Origin: Candidatus Kaiserbacteria bacterium | GTDB taxonomy: Bacteria > Patescibacteriota > Minisyncoccia > Phycocordibacterales > UBA918 | Assembly: GCA_016204695.1 (NCBI GenBank) | Contig: JACQKD010000003.1 | Coordinates: 1 to 56,071, forward strand | DNA length: 56,071 bases | Reading direction: 5' to 3' | Shown: positions 47,819 to 55,777 of the stretch, piece after piece | Layout of the letters: each line of letters starts with the position of its first letter | Numbering within the stretch: position 1 is the stretch's first letter | Program-made: the position numbers and the translations under genes | The notes under the pieces: generated by a model | The model's input: the letters and a program-made list of their open reading frames with translations, nothing else | Databases searched by the model: none | Told to the model about the DNA's origin: nothing

Positions 47819-48067
47819 TTATAGTGATTCTCCGATAAGAACAACCGCTTCGCTCTGGGGACGGACTTCGAGGACGCCGTTTTCGAGCGGGATATCAAGG
47901 TTTTGTTGGCCTTTTCTGACAACCGAAACGCATGGGCCGGTCAGCGTAGTGACAAGCGGAATATGCTCCGGAAGCACGGCAATTTGGCCTCCGCTCGTAT
48001 GCGCGATAAGCTCGTCGGCTTCGCCTTCGAAGAGAGTTTCAGAAATTGAATAGACTGCGATTTTCAT
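47819..48067 (-). CDS. atpC: F1 ATP synthase epsilon subunit (beta-sandwich domain only)
   Basis: MKIAVYSISETLFEGEADELIAHTSGGQIAVLPEHIPLVTTL is epsilon-like. It occupies the last position in the atp operon. Confidence 0.8.
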   Translation of the reverse strand: MKIAVYSISETLFEGEADELIAHTSGGQIAVLPEHIPLVTTLTGPCVSVVRKGQQNLDIPLENGVLEVRPQSEAVVLIGESL

Positions 48068-48363
48068 GAATCAAGTTTTAATTTCTCCTTCGTTTCTATT
48101 ATTTTCTGTTTCAGTTCTTCTACGGTAGAGTAGGCACGAGGACCTACTGCATGATCTTCTTCATGTTGAGAAAACCTGCTCGCCACCTTATCCAGTTCCG
48201 AAAATACTTTCCTCTCTATGTCACTAAGTATCTTGGGATCTATCTCTAACGAGTAGGAGTAATAAAACTCATCACAAAAGGTTGATTCGTCAATATTTCC
48301 GGAGAGATATTCATCAATCAGCCAATAGAGTCTCCGTCTGTCGTTTTTATCGTATATTATCAT
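48064..48363 (-). CDS. Hypothetical 99 aa helical protein inserted between atpD and atpC
   Basis: It is AT-rich relative to its neighbours, and its stop overlaps the atpC start (ATGA). The sequence LYWLIDEYLSGNIDESTFCDEFYYSYSLE... recalls small immunity or antitoxin-like helical proteins, but I am not confident of any family. Confidence 0.5.
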   Translation of the reverse strand: MIIYDKNDRRRLYWLIDEYLSGNIDESTFCDEFYYSYSLEIDPKILSDIERKVFSELDKVASRFSQHEEDHAVGPRAYSTVEELKQKIIETKEKLKLDS

Positions 48364-48394
48364 CCTTGGTATACTAAGCTTTCTGGACGAGACA

Positions 48395-49765
48395 CTATAC
48401 CTCCTCGATGCCGCCTTTCATATAAAAGGCATCTTCCGGCTTGTCGTCATGCTTGCCATCGAGGATTTCGCGGAAACCGCGCACGGTGTCGGCAAGCGGC
48501 ACGAATTTGCCGGGCCGTCCCGTAAACATCTCGGCGACGAAAAACGGCTGAGAGAAGAAGCGCTGTATCTTGCGCGCACGAGCAACGGTCTGCTTGTCCT
48601 CCTCGGAAAGCTCCTCCATGCCGAGAATGTTGATGATGTCTTGAAGCTCGGCGTATCGCTGGAGCGTACGCTGGACATCGCGAGCGGTCTGATAGTGCTC
48701 TTCGCCCACGATGCGCGGGTTGAGCGCGGAAGAGGTCGAAGCAAGCGGGTCAACGGCCGGATAGATGCCGAGCTCGGTGAGCGCCCGCGAAAGCACGATA
48801 GTGGAGTCAAGGTGGCTGAAGGTGGTCGCGGGCGCCGGGTCGGTGATGTCGTCTGCCGGCACATAGATGGCCTGCACGGACGTGACCGAACCGCGCGTGG
48901 TGGAAGTGATGCGCTCCTGAAGCTCACCCATCTCGGAGGCCAAGGTCGGCTGGTAGCCCACGGCCGACGGCATGCGCCCGAGAAGCGCCGAGACTTCCGC
49001 GCCCGCCTGCGAGTAGCGGAAAATGTTGTCGATGAAAAGGAGTACGTCCTTCCCTTCCTCGTCGCGGAAATATTCGGCCATCGTGAGAGCGGTGAGCGGC
49101 GTGCGCAGACGCGCGCCCGGCACTTCGTTCATTTGTCCGAAGACGAGCGCGGTCTTGTTGAGCACGCCCGACTCCTGCATTTCGCGATAGAGGTCGTTGC
49201 CTTCGCGCGTGCGCTCGCCGACGCCCGCGAAGACCGATGCACCGCCCGATTCCTCCGCCACGTTGCGGATGAGCTCGGTGAGAAGCACGGTCTTGCCGAC
49301 ACCCGCGCCGCCGAAGAGCCCAACCTTGCCGCCGCGAATAAACGGCGCGAGCAAGTCGATGACCTTGATGCCGGTCGGGAAGATTTCGGTCTTGGTCGCC
49401 TGCTCGTAGAGCGGCGGCGCACTGCGATGAATCGCCCATTTCTTTTCAAACGCTTTCGCATTTTCCGGTTGGTCAAGCGCCTCACCGAGCACATTGAAAA
49501 GCCGCCCGAGCACTTCCGGCCCGACCGGCACGGAGATGCCCGCGCCAGTGTCGGTCACCGTCGTCCCACGCGAGAGGCCATCGGTCGAAGAGAGCGCAAT
49601 CGTGCGCACTGTGCCGCCGCCAAGATGTCGCGCGACTTCAAGCGTCACGACGCTTCCGTCTTCGCACTCAATCGTGAGCGCATTATAGATGCTGGGCAAT
49701 GTATCCTCCGCAAAAGCGACATCAACGACCGGCCCGATGATTTGTGTGATAGTTCCTTGTGTCAT
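48395..49765 (-). CDS. atpD: F1 ATP synthase beta subunit
   Basis: It has the P-loop [10 protein letters not shown], the [10 protein letters not shown] region and a DELSEED-like MEELSEEDK. Confidence 0.97.
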
Positions 49766-49773
49766 AAAAATTT

Positions 49774-50184
49774 TTATGCTTGACCTGGATAAAAAAGTTG
49801 TAACACGACCTGAACGGAAGATGTTATGAGTTCGGGGTGCTCTTTAATATAACTAACAAATTTTTTAAACCAAGTATTGGCGCTCGATACATTGCCATTT
49901 TTCAAGTCTTGATACGAAGATTGAAGGTAAGTTTGGGCATCGCCTTGCAAATCTTTTATTGCCGCTTCAAGTAATTCATACTGACTTTCTGCAATATAGT
50001 CTTTAATACTAAAAGTTCCAGCGTTCGTCACGTTACCAAGAACTTCAAGGTTTGCCCTGACATCAATTTGGACATTTCCTGTATTTTGAAAATCGCCGCC
50101 AACCTTAACAATACCTCCACCGCCAAATCTTGCGGTTGTGCCTTCAGTATTATTTATTCCTTTGGGCGAAATGTGGAAAGTCAT
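49774..50184 (-). CDS. Hypothetical 136 aa protein inserted between atpG and atpD
   Basis: It is AT-rich, with 8 nt gaps to both neighbours. The N-terminus is Gly/Asn-rich and beta-repeat-like ([41 protein letters not shown]), and the C-terminus is helical. Confidence 0.5.
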
Positions 50185-54204: not shown

Positions 54205-54638
54205 TTACTGGTATTAGGATTGCGATTTTGCTCCTCTACTGCGTTTGCAAGAATTCCTTGATCTATCTCCAGAGCCATCCTTAGTCGAGAGAGATCCCCT
54301 TCGATAGTTAACAAGGCTCTTGTGTAGAAATTCAGCCAACCTTCCGTTTTTACCATGGCTTCCCCTGCCACCTCTTCACCCTCTCTCGAAGATGACGGGC
54401 TGAAACGCGCCTCCCGTGCTCTTTCCGTACGAACTTTCAGTTCACCTTCAAGCTCTACTATGCGAGACTTGATGTCCCGTATCACTTCAAGCAATGCCCG
54501 TTCCTTTTCTATTTGTTCCTTCTCATCCCGGAAAAAGGTGTCTACCACTTCCTCGGCTCTCTCCGGATAAAAACCGCCTCCACTTTCTTTATCCGTGACA
54601 GTTGGAACAAAACGCCTCCTGTTGGGTTTCCGTTCCAT
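54201..54638 (-). CDS. Hypothetical 145 aa charged coiled-coil protein inserted between atpE and atpF
   Basis: It has no TM segment, and its stop overlaps the atpF start (ATGA). EKEQIEKERALLEVIRDIKSRIVELEGELKVRTERAREA looks like coiled coil. Confidence 0.5.
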   Translation of the reverse strand: MERKPNRRRFVPTVTDKESGGGFYPERAEEVVDTFFRDEKEQIEKERALLEVIRDIKSRIVELEGELKVRTERAREARFSPSSSREGEEVAGEAMVKTEGWLNFYTRALLTIEGDLSRLRMALEIDQGILANAVEEQNRNPNTSN

Positions 54639-54650
54639 ACGATAGAAGGC

Positions 54651-54887
54651 CTACTCTACGAATTTAACGACGAGTGCGATAACAAGCGCGTAAATCGCAA
54701 TCGCTTCCGCGAACGCAATCGCGAGCACCATCGCCGTCTGCACCTTTGATGCCGCTTCAGGATTGCGCCCGATCGCATCGAGGCCCCTGCCGCCAATCCA
54801 CGCGATTGCGAGCGCCGGTACGACGGTACCGCCGACAATCGCAAGCGCCGTCACAATAAGTCGTGCTACTTCTGGGTCTGCAAACAT
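54651..54887 (-). CDS. atpE: Fo ATP synthase c subunit
   Basis: It is a two-helix hairpin with the GRNPE loop (GLDAIGRNPEAASK) and the carboxylate helix AFAEAIAIYALVIALV. Confidence 0.93.
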   Translation of the reverse strand: MFADPEVARLIVTALAIVGGTVVPALAIAWIGGRGLDAIGRNPEAASKVQTAMVLAIAFAEAIAIYALVIALVVKFVE

Positions 54888-55036
54888 TGTATAAATACTT
54901 AAAGTTATTAATTCTGATCTTTTTCAAAGTTGATGAAATGCGAGAAACGGAGAAGGCGGTGAGGAAGACGTATGAATAATACGGCGACCGAGACGCAGAG
55001 GCTCCGCGACAGAGCAGATCGCGACTTTGGGAAAGA

Positions 55037-55777
55037 TCAGTGATGGTGAGCGACTGCAATACTAATAAACACCATAGTCAGCATCGCAAACACCAACGCT
55101 TGAATGAAGCCCACAAAGACCTCAAGCAACAAAAACGGAACCGGCGCCCCATACGGAGCCAAGAATCCGACGATAACCAACAGCACTTCCCCGGCAAACA
55201 CATTGCCGAAAAGGCGGAAGGAGAACGATATGATTTTAGCAAATTCCGAAAGAAGTTCAAGGATGCCCACAAAAAAGTTGATGGGGTTCGAGAAGGTGAA
55301 AAACTTTTTCAGATGAGCAAAGAGCCCGAGCGCGCCCACACCCGAGACGTTGACGAGCGTCATGGCGACGATGCCGAGCGCAAGCGTCACATTGAGGTCG
55401 CTCGCGGCCGAGCGCAAAAACGGCACAAAGACCTCATGCCCCTCTTTAGACTCAAAAAAACCGAACGCGCCGACGCCGGGCAATATCCCAAACCAGTTCG
55501 AGCAGATGATAAAAAGGAAGAGCGTCGCGATGATGGGGAGATACTGTTCGGCTCGCTCACGCGAGCCGAAAATCCCTTCCATGAGCCCGAGGAGCGATTC
55601 TATGACCACCTCAAACACATTCTGCGGGCCGACCGGCACGAGCCGAATCTTGCGGGAAAGCGCATACGCGCCGACGATCAAAAGCCCGGTCACGAGCCAT
55701 GCGGCGACAAACGTATTCGTGACCGAAAATCCGCCCACGCTCAAAAGCTCTTCAGCAGCAATTTCTATATGCGGCAT
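55037..55777 (-). CDS. atpB: Fo ATP synthase a subunit
   Basis: It is polytopic. SFSFRLFGNVFAGEVLL contains the conserved Arg of subunit a. Confidence 0.92.
   Translation of the reverse strand: MPHIEIAAEELLSVGGFSVTNTFVAAWLVTGLLIVGAYALSRKIRLVPVGPQNVFEVVIESLLGLMEGIFGSRERAEQYLPIIATLFLFIICSNWFGILPGVGAFGFFESKEGHEVFVPFLRSAASDLNVTLALGIVAMTLVNVSGVGALGLFAHLKKFFTFSNPINFFVGILELLSEFAKIISFSFRLFGNVFAGEVLLVIVGFLAPYGAPVPFLLLEVFVGFIQALVFAMLTMVFISIAVAHHH

Follow-up and report, generated by a model that had tools for sequence, protein, structure and literature searches.

Foreign small genes, including a predicted RelE/YafQ-type toxin-antitoxin cassette and an ImmD-like gene, at four junctions of an F1Fo ATP synthase operon of a Candidatus Kaiserbacteria bacterium

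Textbook atp operons, which encode the F1Fo ATP synthase, are contiguous. The small membrane proteins AtpI and AtpZ are encoded upstream of atpB, and naturally split operons are found in cyanobacteria, chloroplasts and some alphaproteobacteria, the cyanobacterial split separating atpD-atpC from the other atp genes. Here we analyze a 56,071-nt stretch of DNA from a Candidatus Kaiserbacteria bacterium (contig JACQKD010000003.1 of assembly GCA_016204695.1, positions 1 to 56,071; referred to below as the window), in which an atp operon on the minus strand is interrupted in four intercistronic gaps by five additional open reading frames (ORFs) of the same strand.

Chromosomal hotspots of horizontal gene transfer between core genes have been described by Oliveira, Touchon, Cury and Rocha (2017; PMC5635113). 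Hotspots without mobile-element genes were linked to homologous recombination and transformation, and new genes were found to integrate rarely within operons (PMC5635113). The atp junctions resemble such hotspots in being core-flanked intervals with differing cargo, rapid turnover and no recognizable mobile-element genes, and the duplications of flanking genes seen at atp junctions suggest recombination here as well. They differ in lying inside a single essential operon and in carrying co-oriented cargo; since new genes rarely enter operons (PMC5635113), the atp pattern is unusual. A second parallel is provided by the rRNA genes of the Candidate Phyla Radiation (CPR), which carry self-splicing introns and protein-coding insertions (reviewed in PMC9698310). 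These insertions likewise add coding sequence to a conserved essential locus in the same radiation, but they lie within a gene and are removed from the RNA, whereas the atp inserts are whole cistrons between genes. Full-text literature searches returned no description of interrupted CPR atp operons or of toxin-antitoxin (TA) or immunity genes inside atp operons. The TA module and the immunity protein described below belong, or probably belong, to ordinary known families; it is their location and its recurrence that carry the interest.

The order along the minus strand is atpB, atpE, ORF145, atpF, atpH, atpA, antitoxin, toxin, atpG, ORF136, atpD, ORF99, atpC. The operon has intact genes for all eight subunits (a, c, b, delta, alpha, gamma, beta and epsilon) in canonical order on one strand, and each is matched by Pfam/NCBIfam models. 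This order, with five inserts at four junctions, had been proposed in an earlier note made from the sequence alone, and it was confirmed by ORF listing and by direct reading of the minus strand. Our preferred interpretation, to which we assign a probability of roughly three in four, is that this is an intact F1Fo operon of a Parcubacteria-type (CPR) bacterium, the spacers of which became landing sites for genes that were acquired horizontally and are conflict-related or selfish. The inserts are foreign and independent of one another, insertions recur at the same junctions, the cargo runs in the direction of the operon, and some of the events left duplications of flanking genes.

An assembly chimera as the source of this architecture was ruled out at three of the four junctions by independent Logan assemblies of SRR12113383, SRR12113384 and SRR12113430, which reproduce c-ORF145-b-delta-alpha, gamma-ORF136-beta and beta-ORF99-epsilon with 100% identity; the architecture is therefore not an assembly artefact. 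Support for the fourth junction, atpA|atpG, comes from the same TA cassette in the related strain of locus L181 and not from an identical independent assembly. The GC content of the inserts is 0.377 for ORF99, 0.387 for ORF136, 0.461 for the toxin and 0.479 for ORF145, as compared to 0.51-0.62 for the atp genes. At third codon positions the values are 0.31 (ORF136), 0.38 (ORF99), 0.44 (ORF145), 0.51 (toxin) and a host-like 0.67 (antitoxin), against 0.51-0.75 for the atp genes. The initial impression that two inserts are AT-richer than their surroundings was thus correct and extends further, to the toxin and ORF145.

The insert at atpA|atpG is a predicted TA pair (antitoxin at 51411-51686, 91 aa, basic; toxin at 51144-51401, 85 aa; both on the minus strand). 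Like the RelE/YafQ TA modules of E. coli (DinJ-YafQ) and H. pylori (HP0895-HP0894), it consists of two small genes with the antitoxin first; unlike them, it sits between atpA and atpG of an essential operon rather than free-standing or on a mobile element. The toxin scores above the curated cut-offs of PF05016 (30.9 bits, cut-off 23), PF15738 YafQ (30.6, cut-off 30) and TIGR02385 (31.2, cut-off 27.9). Its best PDB match is HP0894 of H. pylori (4LS4/1Z8M; E 8e-6), aligned over the full length, with the C-terminal GTHSELY of the toxin opposite GSHSELF, so that the motif G(T/S)HSEL(Y/F) is shared. In the PDB sequence comparison YafQ was matched at E 0.03, and RelE was also weaker than HP0894. We predict that the 85-aa protein is a RelE/YafQ-type, ribosome-dependent mRNA endonuclease; in a PHROG search it was the only insert to match annotated (RelE-like) families. 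The antitoxin gene lies 9 nt before the toxin gene in the same orientation. It matches the unannotated family phrog_2737 (E 2e-6), has no PDB match and reaches TIGR02384 RelB_DinJ at E 0.099 only, a marginal match by which it is possibly RelB/DinJ-like.

The 57-nt spacer 5' of the antitoxin contains the best sigma-70-like promoter match of the 9-kb region, TTGACA-17-TAAACT (51693-51721, minus strand; 10 of 12 positions), which is kept in L181. The atpG product of that locus is 92% identical to that of the window (about 83% identity in DNA). There, atpA is followed by 66 nt copied from the 5' end of atpG, the promoter, an antitoxin and toxin of the window type, a second TA pair, atpG and atpD. 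The copy comes directly after atpA, covers atpG codons ~2-23 and shares 86% identity with the 5' end of atpG (blastn E 3e-16). In the window a remnant of the same fragment, ATGGCGTCTACGAAGAAAAGTTGA (51741-51718, minus strand), lies directly 3' of atpA; relative to L181 it has a 48-nt internal deletion and is fused to the -35 hexamer. From these alignments, we interpret the atpG' fragment after atpA as the insertion scar of the TA cassette.

The two cassettes of L181 stand in tandem (L181:455-1599). The first has an antitoxin 81% and a toxin 69% identical to those of the window, both intact; the second is of the type found in the more distant loci L093 (75% atpG identity) and L002 (61%), where it is the only TA type at atpA|atpG. 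Relative to the window, the indel of the second L181 cassette starts exactly at the start codon of atpG, and a short tATG repeat flanks it. The toxins of the two types are distant relatives (23% identity, E 7e-5), and their antitoxins are unrelated. The atpA|atpG junction has therefore both stacked and lost TA cassettes. The window-type cassette is older than the other inserts, because it is shared by L181 with its 92% identical atpG. Two further observations concern the L093 and L002 loci. In L093, the closest relative from a metagenome, atpG is followed (1664-1697) not by atpD but by an ORF that starts MGITSYRDLI, has 11 codons on the contig and resembles the N-terminus of 23S-rRNA-intervening-sequence proteins; such proteins occur at atp junctions in L118 (by Pfam) and in L100 and L074 (by eye). 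The spacer between atpA and the antitoxin in L002 (L002:432-768) holds a near-perfect inverted repeat, gaaactgttgaaaaagc ... gctttttcaacagtttc, with arms of more than 40 nt.

The position of the promoter-like site between atpA and the antitoxin, and its conservation in L181, could also be read in terms of regulation: the cassette would have been co-opted so that its autoregulated promoter controls atpG-atpD-atpC apart from Fo and alpha, tying F1 to stress. A TA cassette is indeed present at atpA|atpG in all four closest lineages with data (the window, L181, L093 and L002). The argument is one of position, however; two unrelated antitoxins occupy the site in different lineages, so that no specific regulator is conserved, and L001, L003 and L004 have no TA pair at atpA|atpG. 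We regard such co-option as very unlikely.

A second insertion with duplicated ends of atp genes is found in Sungbacteria, where a 2.1-kb insert at atpD|atpC (L001:7584-9695, equivalent to L094:6387-8498) carries a minus-strand RelE-like TA pair and a 5' fragment of atpC and ends in a duplicated 3' fragment of atpD before atpC. This event is independent of that in the window. No duplicated atp fragments or repeats flanking ORF136, ORF99 or ORF145 were found by tblastn (E <= 10) or junction inspection; among the inserts of the window, only the TA cassette is scarred.

ORF136 (49774-50184, minus strand) fills the atpG|atpD junction with an 8-nt gap on each side, as originally described. It belongs to a small Parcubacteria family: besides the window's own there are 27 homologs of 53-80% identity, all from metagenomes or Parcubacteria genomes (e.g. 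Wildermuthbacteria). Those of 63-80% identity are located after topA, beside a type I restriction-modification island, or alone, and none of the homologs examined for context lies in an atp operon. The ratio of nonsynonymous to synonymous substitution (dN/dS) within the family is about 0.08-0.12, indicating strong purifying selection. An AlphaFold model (predicted local distance difference test score, pLDDT, of 79) has a beta-solenoid-like N-terminal half and a four-helix C-terminal half; Foldseek retrieved nothing better than E 1.2 from the PDB, a profile search of PDB sequences gave no match, and no relatives were present in IMG/VR contigs. The GC content of ORF136 is close to that of the low-GC genomes carrying its homologs (0.38-0.42) and not to that of the window (0.54). 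In L181 atpG and atpD are 22 nt apart, and since ORF136 is missing there, it entered the operon after the split from L181. Composition and distribution mark ORF136 as a recent gain, putatively from a low-GC, Parcubacteria-type donor. In other contigs the ORF136 homolog is followed by N-terminally membrane-anchored proteins of no named family (L176:1-738; L082:8402-8845; L175:639-1557), and in one contig a LAGLIDADG-like ORF precedes it. There are hints here of a mobile two-gene module, consisting of the ORF136 homolog and its membrane-anchored neighbour, of which the window would hold the first gene only.

ORF99 (48064-48363, minus strand) occupies atpD|atpC, and its stop codon overlaps the atpC start codon in an ATGA (48067-48064), from which translational coupling of ORF99 to atpC may be inferred. 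We found 139 homologs besides the window's own (51-77% identity). Nearly all of the named ones belong to Bacteroidota such as Flavobacterium, Pedobacter, Chryseobacterium and Dyadobacter, and some carry a colicin-immunity-domain annotation. Of 22 aligned family members, nine match PF09204 (Colicin_immun) at E <= 0.01, the best at 5.3e-6. The AlphaFold model of ORF99 (pLDDT 92.5) superposes on the colicin D immunity protein ImmD: the top two Foldseek matches in the PDB are ImmD chains with probability 1.00, albeit with E-values of only 0.08-0.09, namely 1TFK_B (TM-scores 0.72/0.82, root-mean-square deviation (rmsd) 2.2, 89 columns) and 1V74_B (0.72/0.81, rmsd 2.5, 93 columns). Structure prediction, recommended in the earlier note for the unknown ORFs, was carried out for ORF99 and ORF136.

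The genomic context of ORF99 homologs points in the same direction. For example, the 68%-identical homolog P0042 (Flavobacterium, CP156060.1) lies in an immunity position, 15 nt downstream of a gene for a 2412-aa SpvB/RHS/YD-shell toxin, and is followed by an Ntox24 cassette. Another homolog, P0032, is one of the small ORFs arrayed after a DUF6443 gene, near conjugative-transposon genes. No Pfam match was obtained for the small ORFs upstream of P0032 (L090), and neither a Pfam (including Colicin_D) nor a PDB sequence match for the C-terminal tip of the Flavobacterium RHS protein beside P0042; no ORF99 relatives occurred in IMG/VR contigs. The family is under strong purifying selection, with proportions of nonsynonymous (pN) and synonymous (pS) differences of 0.16 and 0.78. 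Because of the ImmD fold and the homologs adjoining RHS-type toxin genes, we assign ORF99 as a predicted orphan immunity gene, its product being an ImmD-like immunity protein of a polymorphic-toxin system, an assignment made at the level of family and fold. It differs from ImmD in its host, a CPR bacterium, and in its place within an atp operon, overlapping atpC. Orphan immunity genes acquired without an adjoining toxin gene have reportedly been seen in gut Bacteroidales, and ORF99 is similar in this respect.

ORF145 (54201-54638, minus strand) encodes an orphan 145-aa protein, acidic and hydrophilic with no transmembrane segment, and spans the atpE|atpF gap almost exactly, with 12 nt between it and atpE and 8 nt between it and the GTG start of atpF. 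It has no Pfam, NCBIfam, PADLOC or PHROG family, and an exhaustive HMMER search of 1.84 billion representatives gave one weak match only, to a repetitive 2313-aa protein. The chance of an open frame of this length is, by our own estimate, about 1e-3 per frame. In locus L183, with atpB at least 90% identical to that of the window, the atpE|atpF spacer is 34 nt long and free of ORF145, which is probably a recent insertion. The same locus bears on the start of atpF: its gene begins with ATG at the position homologous to GTG 54192 (MAELLHNFG as compared to (M)SELLHNFG), and the gene calls of L173 and L174 use the GTG 54192 start as well (169 aa). Of the two ATGA stop/start overlaps reported earlier, the one at 48064-48067 stands; the other, at 54201-54204, reads TTGA, and by these alignments ORF145 and atpF are probably separated by an 8-nt gap rather than overlapping. 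The suggested translational coupling is accordingly limited to ORF99 and atpC.

An orphan such as ORF145 raises the question of whether the inserts are simply neutral junk, recent and functionless, tolerated because the operon remains unbroken. ORF136 and ORF145 are indeed missing from close relatives, the composition of the inserts is not ameliorated, and there is no cognate toxin near ORF99. Against this, none of the five frames is disrupted, the ORFs fit their gaps almost exactly, the families of ORF136 (dN/dS about 0.1) and ORF99 are under the purifying selection noted above, and both genes of the TA pair are kept intact in a strain ~17-20% diverged in DNA. Moreover, useless DNA would not be expected to persist for long in the streamlined genomes of CPR bacteria. 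We consider the junk explanation unlikely. The earlier note had named absence from relatives together with disrupted frames as the mark of recent junk; the absences are real, and the frames are open.

To place the window among its relatives, we collected 160 related loci by atpG scans of genome and metagenome collections and counted a junction as occupied if its gap was at least 250 nt, the median junction spacers in the ~160 loci being 4-78 nt. Occupied gaps were found at atpG|atpD in 22 of 136 loci (16%), at atpA|atpG in 18 of 139 (13%), at atpD|atpC in 6 of 66 (9%), at atpB|atpE in 3 of 90 (3%) and at atpE|atpF in 1 of 91 (1%), the difference between atpG|atpD and atpE|atpF being significant (p = 8e-5). 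An apparent gap at atpG|atpD of L006 proved to be a false positive, an atpD broken by a run of N, and was removed. The position occupied most often, atpG|atpD, is also the split point of the cyanobacterial operons. Insert-bearing loci make up 18 of 56 CPR-labelled or unlabelled loci and 1 of 24 labelled otherwise (p = 0.008), and the longest gap ORF has the orientation of the operon in 39 of 49 cases.

Homologs of the five inserts are absent from all 160 related loci; the same junctions carry other cargo. Pfam-confirmed cargo in the relatives comprises ParE/RelE, PemK/MazF, HicA, MNT/HepT, NUDIX, Ham1, NTPase_I-T, YfbR-like HD, NYN, 23S_rRNA_IVP, ORF6N and GIY-YIG; many small membrane proteins and acidic helical proteins belong to no family. 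The atpA|atpG, atpG|atpD and atpD|atpC junctions of the ~160 loci together hold at least 13 Pfam families plus unknowns. Relatives reach at most three occupied junctions (L039, L095 and L149), as compared to four in the window, which is the extreme of a distribution of interrupted Parcubacteria atp operons, with more interruptions than expected by chance. The case had initially been treated as unique; it does have the most occupied junctions, but many Parcubacteria operons are interrupted at the same places. Genes for NTPase_I-T, a YfbR-like HD 5'-deoxynucleotidase and a nucleoside deoxyribosyltransferase-like protein were seen at atpA|atpG or atpG|atpD elsewhere, and the recurrent pairing of such nucleotide-pool "house-cleaning" enzymes with F1 genes may be functional.

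The subunit genes themselves, all on the minus strand, have catalytic and ion-binding motifs that are visible in the sequence. The operon starts with atpB (55037-55777; PF00119, E 3e-42), which has the Arg in the motif FRLFGNVFAGE, followed by atpE (54651-54887; PF00137, E 1e-11) with the conserved carboxylate Glu in FAEA, and atpF (53683-54192; PF00430, TIGR01144), for which TTG 54204 is an alternative to the likely GTG start. The delta/OSCP gene atpH (53300-53686; PF00213, E 3e-8) encodes 128 aa, covering profile positions 66-168 of 172 only. The products of atpA (51744-53285) and atpD (48395-49765, Walker A GGAGVGKT) are 75% and 82% identical to their Sungbacteria counterparts, atpG (50193-51125) matches TIGR01146 with 265 bits, and atpC (47819-48067; PF02823, E 3e-13) encodes an 82-aa epsilon reduced to the N-terminal beta-sandwich. 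The window thus combines a short delta with an epsilon that lacks the C-terminal helical domain. The median atpF-to-atpA distance of ~400 nt in Parcubacteria relatives implies a similarly short delta across the group; in non-CPR loci this distance is mostly larger, ~550-1500 nt in several. A 176-aa gene (47284-47814, minus strand), 4 nt 3' of atpC, weakly matches PF20393 Pro_CA_2, a putative carbonic anhydrase (26.6 bits, cut-off 30), and probably forms the final cistron of the unit, co-transcribed with the operon; the next gene is convergent. Upstream of atpB lies a divergent tRNA-His (55892-55964, plus strand), and an Rfam scan of the window detected tRNAs only, with no other structured RNA in the atp spacers.

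The shortness of delta and epsilon as compared to the canonical proteins invites a view of the inserts as accessory or regulatory ATP synthase subunits specific to the lineage, which would for instance compensate for the missing parts. The tight packing of the inserts and the ATGA overlap of ORF99 with atpC would fit, and in another clade the atpG|atpD junction stably hosts NUDIX and HAM1 genes. In fact, the short delta and epsilon are common to relatives free of inserts; not one of the 160 loci has any of the five inserts, unrelated genes fill the same gaps, and L181 and L183, at least 90% identical in atpG and atpB, respectively, do without ORF136 and ORF145. In addition, homologs of ORF136 and ORF99 reside in unrelated contexts, RHS-type toxin loci among them. 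Identity with AtpI or AtpZ was ruled out: unlike these upstream-encoded membrane proteins, the inserts are internal to the operon, match neither family in Pfam or NCBIfam and have no hydrophobic or transmembrane segment (maximal 19-residue Kyte-Doolittle hydropathy 0.1-0.8, against 1.7-2.6 for subunits b and c). The comparison of related CPR operons thus lends no support to the suggestion of accessory subunits made in the earlier note, an explanation that we hold to be highly improbable. Identity as an anti-phage defence system was also rejected, as PADLOC gave no match to any of the five inserts at E <= 1.

Returning to the landing-site interpretation, it would comprise four separate acquisitions of different ages. 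The oldest would be the TA cassette at atpA|atpG, which brought its own promoter and left the atpG 5' scar; ORF136 would have come recently to atpG|atpD from a low-GC Parcubacteria-type donor; the AT-rich ImmD-like gene at atpD|atpC would derive from a family otherwise found mainly in Bacteroidota next to RHS-type toxin genes; and ORF145 would be a recent arrival at atpE|atpF. Entry may have proceeded by recombination, for instance following DNA uptake, in which the conserved atp genes provided the homology and the flanking duplications arose. The passengers are probably expressed by read-through from the atp promoter, with a contribution of the TA promoter, because they are co-oriented and no spacer between cistrons contains a terminator-like structure (the count equals the shuffled expectation). 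Persistence could be favored because an imprecise deletion would be costly in an essential operon, beside an addiction module and with atpC coupled to ORF99. Of the origins envisaged at the outset, selfish hitch-hikers and defence or addiction cargo are the ones that gain support, from the TA module, the ImmD-like orphan, the occurrence of ORF136 outside atp operons and the absences in L181 and L183. The inserts may have protective functions.

Several points weigh against this interpretation. The boundaries of ORF136, ORF99 and ORF145 showed no integrase, transposase or repeat signature, and the proposed mechanism of insertion therefore draws on scars at other junctions and loci. ORF145 had no homolog in a word-indexed search of 5.8 billion clustered proteins and could be a non-functional ORF. 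ORF99 itself scores below the cut-off of PF09204 (18.4 bits, cut-off 22), and its neighbours in the window are atpD and atpC, with no adjoining cognate toxin gene. Co-transcription of the inserts with the atp genes, and with it their expression, is no more than plausible, given the common strand and terminator-free spacers of at most 57 nt. Occupancy was compared among atp junctions and between CPR and non-CPR loci, a scope within which atp is not shown to be hotter than other operons. Finally, in one Parcubacteria clade (atpG 56-71% identical) NUDIX and/or Ham1 genes are found at atpG|atpD (L024:8920-9327, L149:6184-6591, L135:3305-4317, L124:4980-6027, L055:9249-9854) with cargo identities of 29-52%, which are compatible with long vertical residence, and a functional link of the encoded enzymes is conceivable for some inserts.

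A broader version of the landing-site interpretation would make the junctions adjoining the strongly conserved atpA and atpD (atpA|atpG, atpG|atpD and atpD|atpC) a lineage-wide hotspot of Parcubacteria/Patescibacteria, with small conflict and "house-cleaning" genes captured, swapped and stacked through atp homology arms, partial duplications of atp gene ends left behind, and genes kept for constitutive expression, translational coupling and protection from deletion. We put it forward as a tentative possibility. Elsewhere in the window, a 117-aa AT-rich ORF (GC 0.45, no family) at 46784-47137 (plus strand) begins 11 nt after a thioredoxin-reductase-like gene (45849-46772), and other low-GC ORFs are located at 4385-4798, 14475-15032 and 38763-39638, of which the third region includes a VTT-domain membrane protein. 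Given these similar ORFs, AT-rich ORFs appended tightly to other genes also occur outside the atp operon of this genome.

Horizontally acquired genes may have a hotspot in the interior of a core operon in streamlined CPR genomes. Annotation of CPR metagenome-assembled genomes should not label small same-strand ORFs between atp genes as subunits of the ATP synthase, and the atp junctions offer a cheap place to seek new TA, immunity and conflict genes in uncultured lineages. The ImmD-like gene hints that this CPR cell is exposed to polymorphic toxins of the Bacteroidota type. If the hotspot is indeed lineage-wide, it would constitute a systematic departure from the rule by which new genes stay out of operon interiors, and it would give CPR cells, which have few recognized defence systems, a route to immunity and addiction genes, including ones shared with Bacteroidota.

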